A stretch of DNA of 64,000 nt from Naegleria gruberi (Eukaryota), in assembly GCA_000004985.1 (NCBI GenBank), contig GG738891.1; one strand, 5' to 3'. The notes below the pieces were generated by a model, which made no database searches, was not told the origin of the DNA, and was given only the letters and a program-made list of their open reading frames with translations. Of this stretch, positions 7,663 to 52,940 are shown in pieces (the stretch's first letter is position 1; each line of letters starts with the position of its first letter). A program made the translations under genes and the position numbers.

Positions 7663-9558
7663 TCACTTGTATGAAATTTCTTTCATATCAAAGCTAGTAT
7701 TGATAAAGTCAATGATGTTCTTCTGAGTGTTTGTAATCAAGTGAGATTTACCTTGCATTGTGGTAATTCTAGATCTAAAGTCTCGTTCATCGAGTGATAA
7801 GTTCAGAATGGCATCTAAATTTAACAATAAATCAGAAGTATAGTCTTCCAAACGAGATAGATGGTCATTAAATAAATAACCATAGGTCTCTAACATTAAA
7901 AATTCCTTCTCTGACTTTTTGGTTGTGTTAAATTTGATTTTGAGTGTGTCAAATCCGAAATGAATGTAAGCAAATGCATAACATGAACGTAAGAGTCTTC
8001 TACATCTGTAGATATTTCTGAAAGAGTCGAGAAGGAATTTGAGATCCTTGGTTGGTCTAATATGGAAAAACTTTTCCTTATAATTTGCAATTTCGAGTCG
8101 ATAGTGACCTGTTCGTTTATGTTCCTCCAACCATTGATTGTGTCTTCTGTATAATGAGACGAATCTTCCATAAAGTTCTTCTGCTGCAGAGAATAATTTA
8201 ATATCTTCAGATGTTTTCACTGTCTTTGGAGCACAAACTGTTTCAGCATGAACGTAGGATGTATACTCTGAACCACACTATCGATGAAGAATCAAAACTA
8301 AACTCTCTTTGATGATGATACTTACAATATAACAAAATTCATGTCCACAAACACAATTAATGTGATTACATCCAACATCCTTAAATATAATTCTTTTACA
8401 CTTGTTACATTGTTGACTTGTTCTGTGAATAAACTCTTTCGATGCAAAATCATCCTGAGCAATAGTCAAGAATCTCTTATACACATCACATGAGCATGGG
8501 AAGTGAGGATCCTTATCACATTGGAAGCAACACTCTTCACCACACTTGCATTGAGCAATGTACAAACTTTCATCACATAGTTTCTTGATTGCATAGGGAC
8601 CATCACAGCCTGGATTAGGACACCACTTTAGTCTGTAACTTGAACCCACATATGAATCAATCTTTCTCTGGAAAAACTTTTCAAATAATTCCTTATCTTC
8701 CTTTGGATCCAATTGTGACAACATAAATGTCTCAGTAAGTGTAGTCTTACATGAATAGTCCATACACTTTACAGTATTATCATTCATTGCTGTTTTGACA
8801 TGATTGACAATATATTCCTTCCAACAAGTTCTACAGAAAACATGTCCACACATATCATATGCGTACAATGGAACATCATCTGAATAACAAGCATCACATG
8901 TGCCAATTGTTGAAGATGAACATGATTTTTTGAAATCTGGATTGAGTCCACACTTGGTTAATAAAGCATCCAATCCCAAATCACCATAATCTCTAATTAA
9001 TTTCTCTGTATTCCACTGATATTCCTTCAACATACATTCCACAAATACTTTACTCTTCAATTGAAGAGTTTCAGCTGCTGTCTTTACTTCTGCCTCTTGA
9101 TCTTGCAATAATTCCTTTGTATCAAGTACCTTGTACAATTCTCCTTTTGTTTTAAATTCCCTCGTCTTGACAACTTCTACAAAGGCAGATTCGTCCACTT
9201 GTTCACCAATATCATCATCAAAGTAATGTTCTTCTCCTACTATATCATCTTCATTGTATTCAATTTCCTCCTCCTCTTCATAATTTTCCTCTTCATGATC
9301 ATGATGATCACAACCACATTCCGGCGTCTCGTGCTCTTCTTCCTTCTCTTCATCATCAATTGAAGCTTCCAATAAATCACCATTCTCCTCACACATCTGA
9401 ATGACAGTCTCTATGGCAAGAGCCTCATCTAAATTACAATCCAAAACCACTTGATGGAGTGTTTGGAGGCTAATACTGGGAAAGAGTTCGTTCAATGAGA
9501 GAACGATTGCTTTTATTTTTTCCTTTCGTTTGTCCTTCTCGGATTGTTGTTGACTCAT
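7663..9558 (-). CDS. RBR (RING-IBR-RING) E3 ubiquitin ligase, ariadne-like, about 615 aa, 2 exons
   Basis: Exons 8326..9558 and 7663..8277 with a 48-nt GTAAGT...TAG intron. The splice joins EFCYI to CGSEYTSY. It has an N-terminal UBA/CUE-like helix, an acidic tract, a cysteine-rich RING1-IBR-RING2 region (CGHVFCRTCW...CGHEFCYIC) and a C-terminal ariadne-type domain. Confidence 0.75.
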
Positions 9559-9754
9559 TTTTTTATTTTGTTGATTTCTACGCTGTTTGTTTTCGAAATT
9601 GAAGTTGAGATGCTGAAAGTTCTTTGATAATGAAAAACAAACAAGAGTACTAAGTTACAAAAAAGGAAAACTTAAAAGGAAAGGGGACCAGTGGGAATCG
9701 AACCCACGGCCTCTCGCACCCAAAGCGAGAATCATACCACTAATTTTTATGAAA

Positions 9755-9815
9755 GGGATTTGTGAAGAAGGGATCTGTGAGGAAGGGATCCGTTACAAAA
9801 GGGATTCATTGAGAA
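9755..9815. repeat. Short-tandem-repeat array A, 4 copies of a 15-16 bp GGGATYYRTKNNRRAA unit, at one terminus of the insertion
   Basis: GGGATTTGTGAAGAA GGGATCTGTGAGGAA GGGATCCGTTACAAAA GGGATTCATTGAGAA, read directly from the sequence. Confidence 0.8.
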
Positions 9816-10247
9816 TGTGTTAGTTACTTTCGAATATTTAATTGAAATTTGATCTATATTAAAAAAAATTGCGGAAGGGGTAGTCTCTTTTTTGAAATTA
9901 ATAAAAATATACAATTTTGAAAATTAAAAATCAAGTTTTTTTATTGTTATTTGATGTTTGATTATTTTCTGTAAATTGATTAATTTCACATTTTCTATTA
10001 TGACAATAATGTGAATAATTAACACTTTTTGATGGTTTGTAATTTTGATTCATTTTCTTTTTTAAAATTTAATCTCATTCTAATTTTTAAAAATGTAATT
10101 GTTCATATTATTAAAATGTTATTTTTCTATTTACAATAAATTATTCTATCTCTCTTGAATATTTTTAATAATTGTAAATTTTCTAAAAAAAGGAAATAGA
10201 TAATATTCAATTAAATCCCTTCTAATTTTAAATTTTTTTTTGAGAAA

Positions 10248-10327
10248 GGGATTTGTGAGGAAGGGATTCATTGCAAAAGGGATCCGTTCTGAAAGGGATT
10301 CATTGAAAAATGGATTCATTATGGATG
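10248..10327. repeat. Short-tandem-repeat array B, 5 copies of the same unit, internal to the insertion
   Basis: GGGATTTGTGAGGAA GGGATTCATTGCAAAA GGGATCCGTTCTGAAA GGGATTCATTGAAAAA TGGATTCATTATGGATG. Confidence 0.8.
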
Positions 10328-10406
10328 TGATAGTTTCAAATTTTAATTAATAATATAAAATTAACACAATATTTATTCTATTTATATACATTTCTTTTTT
10401 TGGTAA

Positions 10407-10510
10407 TGGATTTCATTGCAAAAGGGATCCGTTAAAGAAGGGATTCATTACAGAAGGGATCTGTTACAAAAGGGATTCATTGTAAACGTGTTTCATTGAG
10501 AAAGTGTTTC
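10407..10510. repeat. Short-tandem-repeat array C, about 6 copies, at the other terminus of the insertion
   Basis: TGGATTTCATTGCAAAA GGGATCCGTTAAAGAA GGGATTCATTACAGAA GGGATCTGTTACAAAA GGGATTCATTGTAAAC GTGTTTCATTGAGAAA. It ends at the duplication junction. Confidence 0.8.
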
Positions 10511-10787
10511 TACCACTAGACCATGGTCCCTTACGTTTAAAATCCATTATATTTAAAATTGGTGCCTATAATACGGACTACATCTATTTTCCTTGTGTGA
10601 TTCATTACAAAAGGATGGCTATTCAAAACTTTAGAAGGTTACAATTTTAAATGTACTTTGCATGTTACTCACTATTTTTAGTGTCCCAATAGATTTCACT
10701 CACATTCTATTGAAGGTGTTGTGAAAAAAAAAGCACCAACAACCAATACCTTTACTAATCGCTCACTGCCAGCAGTTCATTACCAAC

Positions 10788-11789
10788 ATGTTTACCTTCG
10801 AAGACGAAGAAGCTGAACAAGGTTTTCCATTTGAAAACTCAACCCCAGAGCAAATTATTAACCATCTACAAACTCATGACCATCCTGAAACAATCATCAA
10901 TTCTCAACAAGTGCTTATCATGGCTGTTGAGAATTGTAAAGATTGTTATGAACAGGGAGAAGAGGAAGACTACGTGGAATGGTTCAAATTATGTGAATAT
11001 TTAACATCCAAAAGTGGAGTTAATATTAATGTTTGTAGATGTATTGAAGATGACTATGATTATCCATTATCAATTGCCATTGAATCGTGCGATTTAAAAT
11101 TGATAGAATTGATACTCTCTCATGGAGCTGATCCAAATAATGGAGCTGGTTTCAGATGTAGAAATGTAATGATTAACCTTGCAATTCAAGAAGGATCGAT
11201 GGATATTTTGAAATTATTGCTAAAATATGGAGCTGATGTCAACAAATTCAATACAGTGCATTGTGGAAGATTCTCTCCATGGAATTGTGCCTATTCGAAT
11301 CAAGAGTTTGAAATATTGGATTTTCTCCTAAATCTTCCAAATATTTCTCTAAAGAATTCAAGAATTTTTCATGAAGCTTCTGCGAATGGAGATGTGAAAA
11401 TGGTTGAATTATTAATTAAGAATCATTTTCCAATTTTGGATTTGAATCATGGTAATTATTCAACTCCATTATTTGAAGCATGTAAGGGACAATTCGTTGA
11501 AGTTGTGAAATTACTTGTTCCTCTGCCAGGAATTGACATTAATTTGGGAAGCTATTCTGGAAGAATGGAAACACCTTTACAAAATGCAATTCGAAATTCA
11601 AATATTGAAATTGTCAGTTTGCTAATTTCACACGGAGCCATATTTACAGAATCTGATAGTTTGGAAGCACATAATAATGCAGGTATCAATCTTTATCAAA
11701 TCAAACTTCAAACACAACCAGTTTCGCAACTTCAAAAATTGCTACATTCTAACCTTGCACTTTCTGACACCACATTCGAATATCAATAA
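10788..11789 (+). CDS. ankyrin-repeat protein, 333 aa
   Basis: Single ORF with tandem ankyrin motifs: LHxAxxxGxxxxVxxLLxxGAD occurs several times. Confidence 0.65.
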   Translation: MFTFEDEEAEQGFPFENSTPEQIINHLQTHDHPETIINSQQVLIMAVENCKDCYEQGEEEDYVEWFKLCEYLTSKSGVNINVCRCIEDDYDYPLSIAIESCDLKLIELILSHGADPNNGAGFRCRNVMINLAIQEGSMDILKLLLKYGADVNKFNTVHCGRFSPWNCAYSNQEFEILDFLLNLPNISLKNSRIFHEASANGDVKMVELLIKNHFPILDLNHGNYSTPLFEACKGQFVEVVKLLVPLPGIDINLGSYSGRMETPLQNAIRNSNIEIVSLLISHGAIFTESDSLEAHNNAGINLYQIKLQTQPVSQLQKLLHSNLALSDTTFEYQ

Positions 11790-29077: not shown

Positions 29078-29479
29078 TTTTTATTCTTATTTTTAGATGA
29101 CAAACAGCCTCAATAGCAAACCTAAAAAAAACCGTAAATTCGCTTGATTGCTTGCGATTTTGATCATCATAACCTTCATGAAAAAATATATTAGAAAGTA
29201 AATATGGGAAATGAGAACACTGGAAGTGAAAAAAGCAATAAGGCAATTTTAAATAATAATAATAAATAATATTTAATATTAATGAACAAGTTTTCCCTCC
29301 ATCAAAAAAATGCCAGCAAAGAAAGTGAAGAGTAAAGACTCTACTACAACAACACAGCAACAACAGAGACATCCAAAACTAAGAAGAAGTCATCATCATC
29401 GAGTAGTAGTGCACCGAAAAAGTCTTCATCTTCGGGTAGTAGTGCTGCTACACCAAGTACTCCAACAATAGCATCGAAT

Positions 29480-30757
29480 GTGAATACAACATCAAAATCA
29501 TCATCAAAACAGGCATCAGCAACATCTTCTGTTGATTCTGTTCACAATTTATCATCATCTGTGGCTTCTCCTTCTCCCTCTGTAACAAAACCTAAAAAAA
29601 CAAGTAAGAAAACAAAAACTTCTTCATCTATAACTTCAGGCAGTGCTAGTAATTCTTCTGTTGCTGCTACAAGTGCTCCGATCATTCCACAAGCCTCTAT
29701 TCCTCCTTCCTCACAAATTGCAACCCCTGTAACTATAAATTATGCACAACAGGCAGTACCTCTGGCTTTTCCACCACAGTTTGCCAATAAGAATACCAAT
29801 CCTACACCACCATCAAATGTGGAGGTTCCATACTCGGAGGAAATCAGTAAAATGTTGATGGTATTTTGTTATACGAGCAGAATTGAGCCAAATGGAAATA
29901 GAATTATTGAAAGATATACTAGAAATCATTTAATTCAATTAATTTCAACAGCTTGTGAACAGATACAAAAATCAGCCACACAAACAGATAGTTCAATAAC
30001 TATTTCTCCAGATGACATTCTCTTCTTATTTAAAAATAATAGTCTAAAATTAGCTAGGATTGAAAATTTAATTAAAGTGAAGGAAATGAGGAAAAAGGAT
30101 GAAGAAAGTACATCAGAATCTGATCCAAAGAAGAGAAAACTTACAGCAATCCCATTATTAAAGGAAAAAAAGATTAAATATGATCCAATTTTAGAGATTG
30201 GACATTTTTCTGATGATGAGGATTTGGAAAATGAAAAATCAAGCTACGATCCTTTTGCCACATACATGCACGAAAAACGAAAGGCTGCTGATTTTTTAAC
30301 TAAATGTATGACAACAAATGAATATATGGAATTTACAAAGAATAGAGAGTCTGCAAACATGTTGACTAAGGGAACCAAAAAATTCAGACAATGGCTCGAC
30401 GTGTCGAACGATATCAAGATGAACGACCTTGTTTTAGAAATATTAGCAATGGAAGCTTTCGAAACTATTGGAATACTCTGTCAAGTAGCTCTCATAGTAG
30501 CTATCGATAGTCAAAATAGAAGAATATCACCATTCGAGGATGCTCTTTTCAAGTATGCTGGCTTACTGTCCGAGAGAGCCAGAAGGATGTACTCTCAACA
30601 TCCACAAGACCCGATAGACTTGGCCACTTCGAAACCAGTTCCAACTGTAAATAATAGTTTCCTTACTAATAATCACTTCCTTAGCGCAATCACCTTACTC
30701 CACCCACCAAGTTGCGGAAAACATTATAACCCTCTCAAATTTATTGTGAACATATAA
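29480..30757 (+). CDS. SPT3: SPT3-like SAGA subunit with tandem histone folds and a Ser/Thr-rich N-terminus, 425 aa
   Basis: EISKMLMVFCY...ISPDDILFLFKNNSLKLARIENLIKVK resembles the Spt3 N-terminal TAF13-like histone fold (EIQQMMF...ISPEDLIFLIRHDRAKVNRLRTYL). A second fold lies C-terminally. Confidence 0.5.
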   Translation: MNTTSKSSSKQASATSSVDSVHNLSSSVASPSPSVTKPKKTSKKTKTSSSITSGSASNSSVAATSAPIIPQASIPPSSQIATPVTINYAQQAVPLAFPPQFANKNTNPTPPSNVEVPYSEEISKMLMVFCYTSRIEPNGNRIIERYTRNHLIQLISTACEQIQKSATQTDSSITISPDDILFLFKNNSLKLARIENLIKVKEMRKKDEESTSESDPKKRKLTAIPLLKEKKIKYDPILEIGHFSDDEDLENEKSSYDPFATYMHEKRKAADFLTKCMTTNEYMEFTKNRESANMLTKGTKKFRQWLDVSNDIKMNDLVLEILAMEAFETIGILCQVALIVAIDSQNRRISPFEDALFKYAGLLSERARRMYSQHPQDPIDLATSKPVPTVNNSFLTNNHFLSAITLLHPPSCGKHYNPLKFIVNI

Positions 30758-42770: not shown

Positions 42771-44041
42771 TTACATCATTGAAACGTCTCCATCAGCATC
42801 AGTTTGTAAGGTTTTGGAAATGTAGGATGCTAGGGAAAGTAACTGTAAAAATTCATCAGCTCCATCAATTAAACACTTATCACATTCGGATATTTTCAAT
42901 AGAATCTTACTTCTTTGAATATCATCCATTTTAACACAACAAGCTTCGCTCAATAAATATCGTCCAAGTTGGGTAATTATTTGATAGGCAGCAAAACCTT
43001 GCTTGATAATCTTATTCACACCACTACGTATCACACCTAGGTCAGTTTGTTGGGAAAGGGTTAAAATTTCTTCTATGATTTCATCTGGAACTAGACCAGA
43101 AATTTCAGCTATATGATTTTGTGAAATAGCATTACCAAACATTCTAGAGGCACTTTGTAATGTTGTGATGGCCTTTCTCAAATCTCCTTCAGAGTGACCT
43201 ACAATAGTATCCAAAACTTTTTCATCTTTAAGTGTTATTCCCTCCTGATTAGCAATATATTGTAATCTTTCTTTAAGTAATGAATACTCGAGTGGTTTAA
43301 ATCTGAATTTAGCACATCTTGATGTGATTGGATCAATAATACGACTCACATAGTTACAAATTAAACAGAATCTGGTGACATTAGAATAGGTTTCCATAGT
43401 TCTACGCAATGCAGATTGAGCATCTACAGTCATTGAGTCAGCTTCATCAAGAATAATAATTTTAAAAGGAGGACATGGATACTTTCCCTTTCCTGTTGGA
43501 TTTTCACTCACAGCTGTTTGAGCAAATGTTTTAACTTTAGTTCTAATAACATTGATACCTCTTTCATCACTCGCATTCAATTCCAATACTCTAGTTTTAT
43601 ATAATTCTGGTCCAAATAATTGTTTAGCAATAGCAGTTGCTGTACTTGTTTTACCATTACCAGGAGGTCCCTAAAATTTCATCCATTGTTAAATTTTGTT
43701 GATGATGAACATCTCCTGATACACTATTTACTTACATAGAAAAGCAAGTGAGGAAGATTGCCCACCTCCAAACTCTTCTTCAGAGCACTAACAACCTCTT
43801 CTTGGTGCACAACATCATCCACAGTCTTTGGACGGCTGAATTAATTTAAATTCCAATTTTTGTCGGAATCAATGATCATCACCACAATAAATATTTATCA
43901 TCAAAAACCAACAACACAATATTCACCAACAACACAATCATCATTATCATTTTAGAATCACAATAAGCACTCTCATCACACTAAAAAAAACACTGCTACA
44001 TACTACTTTTCAGTCCATGGTTGTTGTGATTTTTGATTCAT
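42771..44041 (-). CDS. RFC4: replication factor C small subunit, RFC4 ortholog, about 345 aa, 3 exons
   Basis: Exons 44004..44041 ([13 protein letters not shown]), 43736..43835 ([33 protein letters not shown]) and 42771..43670 ([10 protein letters not shown]...DEADSMT...SRC...). Donors are GTATGT and GTAAGT. The sequence is collinear with human RFC4 over PWVEKYRPK...LLFYGPPGTGKTST...[11 protein letters not shown]. Confidence 0.85.
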
Positions 44042-52821: not shown

Positions 52822-52940
52822 AGACTACAGCACCACAGGTTCCCAAGTTGTCTCCAACCTCAGTACTGATGTGGCTCGACGATGCTTAACTTCTCAAATC
52901 GGACGGGATGAGGTGCATGAATCGTGATATGGCCGTAGCC
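52822..52940 (-). rRNA. 5S ribosomal RNA gene, about 119 nt, a single dispersed copy
   Basis: The reverse complement reads GGCTACGGCCATATCACGATTCATGCACCTCATCCCGTCCGATTTGAGAAGTTAAGCATCGTCGAGCCACATCAGTACTGAGGTTGGAGACAACTTGGGAACCTGTGGTGCTGTAGTC. It is collinear with vertebrate 5S, GTCTACGGCCATACC...GGGAGACCGCCTGGGAATACCGGGTGCTGTAGGC. The 5' and 3' ends pair and a T6 run follows. Confidence 0.9.

Follow-up and report, generated by a model that had tools for sequence, protein, structure and literature searches.

The split tRNA-Pro(UGG) gene and its duplicated octamer

The window analysed here, a stretch of 64,000 nucleotides from contig GG738891.1 of Naegleria gruberi NEG-M, carries on its minus strand a tRNA-Pro(UGG) gene in two separate parts. 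Bases 1-20 are found at 10530..10511 and bases 21-72 at 9734..9683, with a 768-bp insert (9743..10510) and a second copy of the octamer TAGTGGTA lying between them. The 5' part (10511..10530, minus strand; GGGACCATGGTCTAGTGGTA) comprises the 5' strand of the acceptor stem, the 5' strand of the D-stem and the D-loop, and its last 8 nt represent the first copy of the octamer. The 3' part (9683..9734, minus strand), as delimited by ARAGORN on the reconstructed gene, contributes the 3' strand of the D-stem, the anticodon arm with TGG, the variable loop, the T arm with the B box GGTTCGATTCC, the 3' strand of the acceptor stem and the discriminator C. No other B-box match occurs within the window. 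Neighbouring genes at this locus encode an IBR-domain protein and an Ank protein (P0020).

ARAGORN calls no tRNA on the uncut window, and the Rfam tRNA model matches the 3' part alone (9689-9749) with 28.4 bits, slightly below the threshold of 29 bits. Joining 10530..10511 to 9734..9683 in silico yields a 72-nt tRNA-Pro(tgg) with a perfect cloverleaf according to ARAGORN: the acceptor stem has 7 perfect base pairs, the other arms are normal, and the 5' and 3' parts pair perfectly. This is in full agreement with the original prediction that both halves reconstitute a tRNA once the insert and one octamer are removed.

The octamer, TACCACTA on the plus strand and TAGTGGTA in tRNA sense, is located at 9735-9742 and at 10511-10518, and a third copy is absent from positions 9000-11000. 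Copy 1 (10511..10518, minus strand) covers tRNA standard positions 13-21, i.e., the 3' half of the A box and the D-loop, and copy 2 (9735..9742, minus strand) is equally exact, such that the insert lies between standard positions 21 and 22. Since the two copies are preceded by unlike bases (C and T) and followed by unlike bases (G and T), the duplication is exactly 8 bp long, just as had been proposed from the first reading of the sequence. We thus confirm an insertion with a target-site duplication, on the single copy examined. Neither the octamers nor the two tRNA parts carry any mutation, and for this reason the insertion is probably recent in evolutionary terms.

The distance from A box to B box now amounts to about 820 bp instead of about 44. 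The sense strand of the insert contains 14 runs of at least four T, the first of which, a T4 run, is located 60 nt from +1. Because of the widely spaced boxes, this early terminator and the 13 further T-runs, the split gene copy is most likely dead, its function presumably being covered by other tRNA-Pro copies. Could the gene nevertheless be functional, with the insert as a non-canonical D-loop intron that is removed post-transcriptionally? Both tRNA parts are unmutated, and with long introns permitted ARAGORN places a gene at exactly 9683-10530, although under the wrong label of tRNA-Glu(ctc) and with an intron of 757 nt placed at position 35. Introns of eukaryotic nuclear tRNAs, however, are short and sit at position 37/38, whereas the insert measures 768 nt and interrupts the D-loop. 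Duplicated octamers at the boundaries are not an intron feature either, and the insert has a modular repeat architecture of its own. Together with the terminators and the separated promoter boxes, these points make an intron extremely improbable, and the earlier view of the locus as an insertion scar stands.

An assembly artefact, or filler DNA caught at a repaired double-strand break, would be conceivable insofar as no more than one copy is known, in what is an older Sanger draft assembly. Sample ERR1078381, from a strain that is 98.3% identical at the DNA level, contains a 99% relative of the neighbouring IBR-domain protein. The contigs of this sample stop at window position 9684 (L003) and 28 nt within the tRNA (L004); they thus break at or in the tRNA, and the filled state is known from one assembly. 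On the other side, tRNA parts that join seamlessly around an exact 8-bp duplication bear the signature of a staggered enzymatic cut, and the insert termini coincide with boundaries of its own modules (see below), which random filler or a chimeric join would not yield. We therefore consider this explanation very improbable. More distant relatives (L005, L009) have no tRNA nearby. The sequence GGGACCATGGTCTAGTGGTA was found at three loci in metagenome contigs (L006-L008), all of them uninterrupted tRNA-Pro(UGG) genes; as their anticodon stem differs and they belong to other organisms, they are uninformative on Naegleria. Implementing all these observations, a mobile-element insertion with target-site duplication has very probably inactivated one chromosomal copy of the tRNA-Pro(UGG) gene.

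Composition and modular structure of the insert

The insert (minus strand; GAAACAC...CATAAAAAT in tRNA sense) is foreign in composition, with a G+C content of 23.7% versus about 33% in the window. Its longest stop-free stretch covers 66 codons. A phmmer search with this 66-aa stretch returned no relatives among 1.84 billion representative proteins, and an exact look-up of nine insert ORFs found none of them in the collection. The insert is non-coding and, therefore, non-autonomous. In tRNA sense it ends in ATAAAAAT, with CATAAAAAT placed directly before the 3' duplication; this tail is short and impure. Terminal inverted repeats were not detected at any offset within +/-8 nt, the best alignment reaching 11/20 matches. 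Two inverted 6-mers, ATGAAA (at 15 nt from one end and 7 nt from the other) and TTACAA (at 26 and 51 nt), are the only ones common to both 80-nt ends, and a subterminal inverted-repeat motif that recurs in the tRNA flanks was sought without a match. An Rfam scan of 9400-10800 by E-value gave nothing credible within the insert, in particular no tRNA-, 5S- or 7SL-like head. The description of the insert as AT-rich and non-autonomous, without an open reading frame or visible terminal inverted repeats and with an A-rich end in tRNA orientation, agrees with these results in every point.

Equally well supported is the earlier observation of three direct arrays of a short unit. We find 14 ATCC(C/A)TT cores spaced 15-17 nt, in arrays of 15-17-bp units that all point in one direction; the unit core reads ATCCCTT, and AATGAATCCCTT and AACGGATCCCTT alternate. 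The word AAGGGATYCRTT occurs eight times, every time within the insert, where 0.08 occurrences would be expected. These are the sole tandem arrays with a 15-16-nt period in the 64 kb, the other tandem repeat being a 33-nt one at 29383-29445.

The arrays are part of three modules of about 100 bp, one at each end of the insert and one internal, all on the minus strand. Module A (10391..10510) forms the 5' terminus; it starts with GAAACAC, contains about five units of 16 nt of the AATGAATCCCTTTTGT / AACGGATCCCTTCTGT type, and ends in CCAAAAAAAG. The internal module B (10226..10340) starts with GAAACTATCAC, has five units and ends in CTCAAAAAAAAAT. Module C (9743..9835) makes up the 3' terminus, extends from GAAAGTAAC to CACATTCTC with four units, and ends in CCCTTTCATAAAAAT, which abuts duplication copy 2. 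The modules align with each other, module B sharing about 79-82% identity with modules A and C, and an A-run closes each of them (A7G, A9 and A5T). The 5' terminus of the insert is at the same time that of module A, and its 3' terminus is that of module C. Between modules B and C stretches a long spacer (9836..10225, minus strand) of about 17% G+C, which is unique and shows low-complexity matches only, with no detectable homology.

Module B is bordered on both sides by TTAAAATT. This pair may possibly represent a separate 8-bp duplication, for which the evidence is weak; if real, it would argue against strict specificity for the tRNA. The terminal modules A and C were also considered as LTR- or TRIM-like terminal direct repeats. 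This class was dropped, as the similarity among the modules is only about 80% despite the recent insertion, and TG..CA ends and a primer-binding site are missing.

A stretch resembling two units, TTTTGAATAGCCATCCTTTTGTAATGAATC (10599..10628, minus strand), lies 69-98 nt upstream of the tRNA and has the same direction as the arrays. It contains the single 16-mer match outside the insert and has a local score of 29. Elsewhere in the window, about 0.3% of 250-nt segments score 29 or more, the empirical tail amounting to about 0.3-0.5%, and chance also produces similar 14-mer matches. A relic of an older insertion is suggestive at most; the stretch may as well be there by chance.

Further copies were searched for in several ways. 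In the window, blastn returned the insert itself and intra-insert matches, without a second copy. The unit-pair pattern AATGAATCCCTT-N8-GATCCCTT has four matches in the insert and none in viral, JGI metagenome and GTDB genome contigs, and blastn of the insert against phage records gave one AT-rich, low-complexity match only. In the literature, the unit sequences are met only in unrelated primers and the like, and no link between Naegleria and tRNA-inserting elements or Dada transposons was found. As one copy has been seen, it is from the duplication alone that we infer mobility of the insert as a family. Most repeats of N. gruberi are still unclassified (PMC12344493).

Candidate mechanisms of insertion

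An insertion by a DNA transposase without terminal inverted repeats, by target-primed retroposition, or by a tyrosine recombinase is possible in each case. We slightly prefer a DNA transposase, Dada-like or otherwise unclassified, over retroposition. A trans-acting enzyme would cut the tRNA gene with an 8-bp stagger, the ends of the element would be joined to the cut gene, and gap repair would result in the 8-bp duplication, while the unit arrays may serve as putative binding sites for this enzyme. For the complete reading, a non-autonomous 768-bp element inserted in the D-loop/A-box of tRNA-Pro(UGG), the transposase mechanism included, we judge the chances to be evenly balanced.

Some observations do not fit easily with a transposase. 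DDE enzymes normally need inverted ends; here none are terminal, no subterminal ones are convincing, and all units are co-directional. Within the window there is no transposase gene, and a Dada profile, used in a word-limited search, recovers no protein of Naegleria. The A-run at the end of each module and the AAAAAT end of the insert fit retroposition about equally well.

The retroposition alternative assumes a SINE-like retroposon that arose by target-primed reverse transcription, the modules of about 100 bp being retroposed units with A-rich tails. The insert would then derive from a composite or read-through transcript that spans modules A to C, the tail of the latter included, and was copied into a nick of the tRNA gene, with staggered nicks giving rise to the 8-bp duplication. 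In its asymmetry, in modules and units of a single polarity, in the absence of inverted ends and in the A-rich 3' end beside the duplication, the insert resembles SINEs and other non-LTR retroposons, among them Alu and other composite or dimeric types; monomers that end in A-runs (here A7G, A9 and A5T) and a duplication length in the usual range are likewise shared. Moreover, module B is flanked by AAAATTT/TTAAAATT at a site similar to TT/AAAA, the classic nick site of L1-type elements. In contrast to SINEs, the tail is very short and impure: it consists of just five A's and a T, which counts against retroposition because the pristine duplication implies a recent insertion. The target in the tRNA, GGTC/TAGTGGTA, is not T/A-rich; neither a Pol III-type (tRNA-, 5S- or 7SL-like) head nor any other Rfam match is present in the insert, and Pol III transcription of the sense strand would be terminated by its 14 T-runs. 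SINEs do not usually contain arrays of 16-bp units, both candidate duplications have a length of 8 bp, which is more transposase-like, and a reverse-transcriptase partner was not identified. In sum, we regard retroposition as the less probable explanation, though one to be taken seriously.

A tyrosine recombinase of the Crypton or integrase type could have integrated a small circular element. The octamer TAGTGGTA would then be a shared crossover core rather than a repair duplication, with the unit arrays acting as arm-type binding sites on either side of this core in the circular element. Tyrosine recombinases typically have overlap regions of 8 bp, and tRNA genes are the classic targets of integrases. 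The insert has in common with Cryptons and prokaryotic integrative elements that inverted repeats are missing, that short direct repeats mark the junctions in a tRNA target, and that arrays of potential accessory sites lie near the core; asymmetric ends with co-directional arrays on both sides are as in attL/attR. In addition, degenerate tyrosine-recombinase (DIRS-like) retroelement sequences have been reported in N. gruberi, which could not be confirmed as DIRS1-like (PMC3266345). Nevertheless, a Pfam scan of the window ORFs revealed neither a transposase nor a tyrosine-recombinase gene, and the element itself carries none. Furthermore, the tRNA is not restored by the integration, unlike in prokaryotic islands, and integration took place at the D-loop rather than in the 3' part of the gene. 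Among eukaryotes, no non-coding 768-bp element of such a kind is known, and none of our tests supports this mechanism specifically, which leaves it improbable.

If the insertion is the only one, the locus is a clean natural case of a tRNA gene copy that was knocked out by an unclassified non-autonomous element in a compact host genome. It would matter more if copies throughout the genome shared the same D-loop site. DNA insertions that enter multicopy RNA genes in a sequence-specific manner are rare, with Dada as essentially the only known example, and they are of additional interest as a safe-harbour strategy of integration. A more far-reaching interpretation is an undescribed family of Heterolobosea that lacks terminal inverted repeats, carries direct arrays of 16-bp units, homes to the A-box/D-loop positions 13-21 of tRNA-Pro and creates 8-bp duplications, either as a deeply divergent Dada-like lineage in Discoba or as a new target-specific class with same-direction ends. 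We consider this unlikely at present; if true, both the mechanistic and the phylogenetic range of such insertions would be extended by a discoban element with 16-bp units and co-directional ends.

Comparison with known mobile elements

Small non-coding hAT elements (MITE-like) were suggested before on account of the 8-bp duplication, and this shared feature is real, as are the small size, the high A+T content and the short subterminal repeats, which bind the transposase in hAT elements. The assignment to hAT itself fails since terminal inverted repeats are missing. hAT elements possess such repeats, together with subterminal motifs that are inverted between both ends, whereas all 14 units of the insert are co-directional. 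Their target preference is nTnnnnAn, which the octamer TAGTGGTA does not match. A Helitron was likewise discarded, as a duplication is present and TC..CTRR ends are absent.

TRE5 and TRE3 of Dictyostelium and Ty1 and Ty3 of yeast use tRNA genes as landmarks, too, a safe-haven strategy in compact genomes. These are long coding elements or their derivatives, whose integration is directed by Pol III factors to sites at some distance from the gene, upstream or downstream of it, and never to a fixed intragenic site, in contrast to the intragenic insertion seen here.

The earlier statement that elements associated with tRNA genes normally insert beside and not within them is contradicted by the Dada DNA transposons (Kojima & Jurka 2013, PMC3706591; Kojima 2022, PMC8869645). 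They insert at fixed sites within tRNA, snRNA and 5S genes, the A box included, with every copy of a given family at one site of one gene type, lack terminal inverted repeats and create short target-site duplications of 6-7 bp; non-autonomous deletion derivatives exist, and Perkinsus is a protist host (PMC3706591, PMC8869645). A narrower version of the transposase model is a non-autonomous derivative of the Dada superfamily that recognises the A-box/D-loop of tRNA-Pro ('Dada-tP'). An insertion in the A box of a tRNA gene, with a short duplication and without terminal inverted repeats, displays signature traits of Dada. The known tRNA sites of Dada, however, are positions 8-13 or the anticodon arm (PMC3706591, PMC8869645), not positions 13-21, and its duplications are shorter than the exact 8 bp found here. 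In Dada-U1 and Dada-tIA, apparent 8-bp duplications were reinterpreted as 6 bp, and the one of Dada-tIA in Perkinsus, TAGCTCAG, starts with TAG (PMC3706591, PMC8869645). A corresponding reading as TAGTGG plus TA may apply to our octamer, too. Dada elements also have subterminal inverted repeats of 7-9 bp, with one arm repeated in the target (PMC3706591, PMC8869645); the insert has ATGAAA only, at unequal distances, and no such repeat in common with its target.

For a search at the protein level, six Dada transposase cores were rebuilt from Dataset S1 of PMC3706591; transposases of this type combine zinc fingers with a DDE core that has DxxH. By tblastn, the six transposases gave nothing below E = 0.6 in the window, which thus contains no Dada-like coding sequence. 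The word-limited search with their profile returned six proteins, exclusively from Perkinsus, fish and one Cetobacterium-labelled (bacterial MAG) entry. Direct arrays of 16-bp units have not been described for Dada, nor is there a literature report of Dada from Naegleria or for tRNA-Pro. A genuine Dada derivative is, therefore, a rather doubtful candidate. Reported Dada targets do not include tRNA-Pro, and no heterolobosean has been reported as a host. The insert shares with Dada its position inside a multicopy small-RNA gene (one instance here), the A-box region as the site of insertion, the lack of terminal inverted repeats and a short target-site duplication.

The split tRNA-Pro gene

The tRNA-Pro(UGG) gene is located on the minus strand in two parts, a 5' part at 10530..10511 (GGGACCATGGTCTAGTGGTA) and a 3' part at 9734..9683 (TGATTCTCGCTTTGGGTGCGAGAGGCCGTGGGTTCGATTCCCACTGGTCCCC), the latter preceded by the second copy of the octamer at 9742..9735 (TAGTGGTA). 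The insert occupies the 768 bp (10510..9743, length determined by script) between the octamer copies, which are the only two octamer sites within 9000-11000. Since the bases adjoining the two octamers differ on either side, the repeat is exactly 8 bp long. Both by reading the sequence and by script, the original prediction of a split tRNA-Pro with perfect 8-bp duplications and a 768-bp insert holds in every detail. In standard numbering the octamer represents tRNA positions 13-21; it takes up the entire D-loop together with the final base of the 5' strand of the D-stem, and includes half of the A box, on its 3' side.

A perfect tRNA had been expected after removal of the insert and one octamer, and ARAGORN indeed folds the 72 nt obtained by joining 10530..10511 and 9734..9683 as tRNA-Pro(tgg), with a perfect acceptor stem of 7 bp and normal anticodon and T arms. 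On the uncut 64-kb window, it reports zero tRNAs. The Rfam tRNA model, run with relaxed thresholds, matches the 3' part alone (28.4 bits versus a threshold of 29), and the one B-box match in the 64 kb lies in this part as well. With very long introns allowed, ARAGORN calls a "tRNA-Glu(ctc), intron 757" at 9683-10530 (minus strand), an artefact of the intron option, and a "tRNA-Val(gac), intron 299" at 43042-43421 (plus strand) inside the RFC-subunit ORF, likewise an artefact.

The interruption was said to be an insertion scar rather than a tRNA intron, and we come to the same view. The boundary octamer is duplicated, the interruption sits at position 21/22 and not at 37/38, it is 768 nt long, its sense strand carries 14 runs of at least four Ts, and the distance between A box and B box is now ~820 bp, formerly ~44 bp. 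T-runs of such length stop Pol III transcription, and the first one starts 60 nt after position +1. Because the T-runs would stop Pol III and the A box lies ~820 bp from the B box, this gene copy is almost certainly dead. The event is probably recent, as neither octamer and neither tRNA part shows a substitution.

Modular anatomy and mode of insertion

The insert has a G+C content of 23.7% (window: approximately 33%), dropping to ~17% in its long internal spacer. Its longest stop-free stretch comprises 66 codons and has no relatives among 1.84 billion representative proteins. This is in good agreement with its earlier description as AT-rich, free of ORFs and, lacking coding capacity, non-autonomous. 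No inverted repeats are found around the junctions at any offset up to +/-8 nt, as had been noted by eye; the sole inverted 6-mers common to both 80-nt ends differ in how far they are from the termini.

The direct arrays of short units seen earlier consist of 14 units that share the core ATCC[C/A]TT, spaced by 15-17 nt and all in tRNA sense. Units of the types AATGAATCCCTT and AACGGATCCCTT follow each other in turn, giving a super-period of 32 nt, and are grouped in three modules of ~100 bp that can be aligned with each other at ~80% identity: module A (10510..10391), module B (10340..10226) and module C (9835..9743), all on the minus strand. Every module starts with GAAAC or GAAAG and is closed by an A-run (CCAAAAAAAG, CTCAAAAAAAAAT and CATAAAAAT, respectively). 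At its 5' terminus the insert opens directly with module A, and at its 3' terminus it closes with module C. On the insert strand, the 7-mer core occurs 12 times in the insert and three times in the remaining window. Directly after module B (10215-10265, minus strand) we observe the sole inverted copy of the core, AGAAGGGATTT, which forms an imperfect hairpin of ~11 bp with the last unit of this module (AAATCCCTTTCT) around an A9/T-rich loop. Apart from the insert arrays, the 64-kb window holds one tandem array, a 33-nt repeat (29383-29445; 1.9 copies, 86% matches) directly upstream of the ORF 29480-30757, which encodes a TFIID 18-kDa domain.

Since an exact target duplication flanks non-coding, structured DNA of foreign composition, and since the ends of the insert coincide with its own module boundaries, the locus bears the mark of a mobile element that entered through staggered target cleavage. 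The element is non-autonomous and unclassified.

Three mechanisms fit this anatomy. A DNA transposase would make staggered cuts of 8 bp in the tRNA-Pro gene; the exact 8-bp duplication and the subterminal arrays of short units speak for it. In many DNA transposons such subterminal units bind the transposase. The DNA-transposon superfamily Dada, moreover, provides a precedent for insertion inside tRNA genes without terminal inverted repeats. Against a transposase stands the complete lack of inverted symmetry, with all units pointing in the same direction at both ends. This single polarity agrees with target-primed retroposition, as do the A-runs that end each module and the insert itself, and what may be a second, separate duplication (TTAAAATT or AAAATTT) around the internal module B, where the site is of the TT|AAAA type. 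However, the tail is very short and impure, the target is GC-rich and non-consensus, T-runs are many, and Rfam detects no Pol III-type head in the insert. We see the DNA transposase slightly ahead of retroposition. Integration of a small circle by a tyrosine recombinase, with the octamer as crossover core and the arrays as arm sites, is allowed by the asymmetry of the insert, but draws no specific support from the tests made.

When read TGAAAC...AAAAAT, module B is bracketed on both sides by TTAAAATT (flanks at ~10341-10348 and ~10219-10226); it ends with AAAAAT, as does the whole insert. The chance of such a bracket in the AT-rich spacer is roughly estimated at 0.5-5%. It may represent an independent duplication of 8 bp, nested in the insert and made in AT-rich DNA outside any tRNA; were this so, the mobile unit would be the ~100-bp module itself, and it would not be tRNA-specific. 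A two-unit-like stretch, TTTTGAATAGCCATCCTTTTGTAATGAATC, is located at 10599-10628 (minus strand), 69-98 nt upstream of the tRNA and in array direction. The empirical tail probability of this stretch amounts to ~0.3-0.5% per 250-nt chunk, and chance also yields 14-mer matches of similar quality; the stretch is suggestive of a relic of an older tRNA-linked insertion while lying within the tail of chance matches. Both are weak hints, and they point in opposite directions with regard to the proposed element family that would target the tRNA D-loop.

Genomic neighbourhood and search for further copies

Five ORFs of the window are identical to N. gruberi EFC40657.1, EFC40595.1, EFC40659.1, EFC40599.1 and EFC40593.1, all from the same 339,217-bp scaffold. 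Genes are densely packed in the window, among them long ORFs without introns that encode ordinary cellular proteins, e.g., Nckap1, HEATR5, alanine racemase, an RFC subunit and pantothenate kinase (the last according to the source annotation); no transposase-like ORFs were seen in it. The split tRNA sits between divergently transcribed genes for an IBR-domain protein (8278-9558, minus strand) and an ankyrin-repeat protein (10788-11789, plus strand). This intergenic region now measures 1,229 bp, and 453 bp without the insert and one octamer. In a genome as compact as this one, a multicopy tRNA gene may simply be one of the few sites that tolerate an insertion. The only Rfam match at gathering threshold in the whole window is a single dispersed 5S rRNA gene among protein-coding genes (52822-52940, minus strand; RF00001, 100.3 bits), found at the same place in a 98.6% identical contig (L001) of sample ERR1078381.

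There are no other copies of the insert within the 64-kb window, and scanning viral, JGI-metagenome and prokaryotic genome collections for the unit-pair pattern yields no match. Three metagenome contigs with the same tRNA 5' sequence carry uninterrupted tRNA-Pro genes of other organisms. On two of these unrelated contigs, tRNA-Pro(UGG) shows partial tandem duplications: in L006 (159-318) a copy without T arm lies directly upstream of the full gene, and in L008 (3050-3210) the 3' end is duplicated together with a trailer.

The metagenome sample ERR1078381 contains a N. gruberi-like strain with ~98.3% DNA identity to the window (~1.7% diverged), in which the 28 terminal bases of the tRNA at this locus are unchanged. 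The k127 assembly contig L003 of this strain (1-130) corresponds to 9684..9555 and stops exactly at the tRNA 3' end, while the Logan contig L004 (1-160) corresponds to 9710..9551 and stops 28 nt inside it. These breaks tell us that the strain carries this tRNA sequence more than once in its genome, and nothing more.

Comparison with known elements

The 8-bp duplication had suggested a hAT origin, which fails on the missing inverted repeats. Targeting of the TRE/Ty3 type was rejected, the insertion being intragenic. The statement that tRNA-associated elements do not land inside tRNA genes is outdated, as Dada does so, with fixed insertion sites inside tRNA, U1, U6 and 5S genes (PMC3706591, PMC8869645). 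Its tRNA sites cluster at positions 8-13 (A box) or in the anticodon arm, terminal inverted repeats are lacking, and duplications measure 6-7 bp, although some appear to be 8 bp, e.g., TAGCTCAG in Perkinsus (PMC3706591, PMC8869645). The N. gruberi insert resembles Dada in its intragenic position at the A box, its short duplication and its lack of inverted repeats. It differs in its site (positions 13-21) and in lacking a subterminal inverted repeat with a counterpart in the target; its duplication, at 8 bp, may also depart from Dada.

No Dada-like coding sequence is present in the 64-kb window. A profile of six Dada transposases, in a word-limited search, matched proteins from Perkinsus and fish and one Cetobacterium-labelled protein (bacterial MAG) only, and there is no report of Dada from Naegleria or at tRNA-Pro. 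As the other defining Dada features are missing or doubtful, we withhold membership and describe the insert as one that would work like a Dada insertion. The element itself is apparently new and undescribed, and of a kind already known, namely mobile-element insertions into small-RNA genes.
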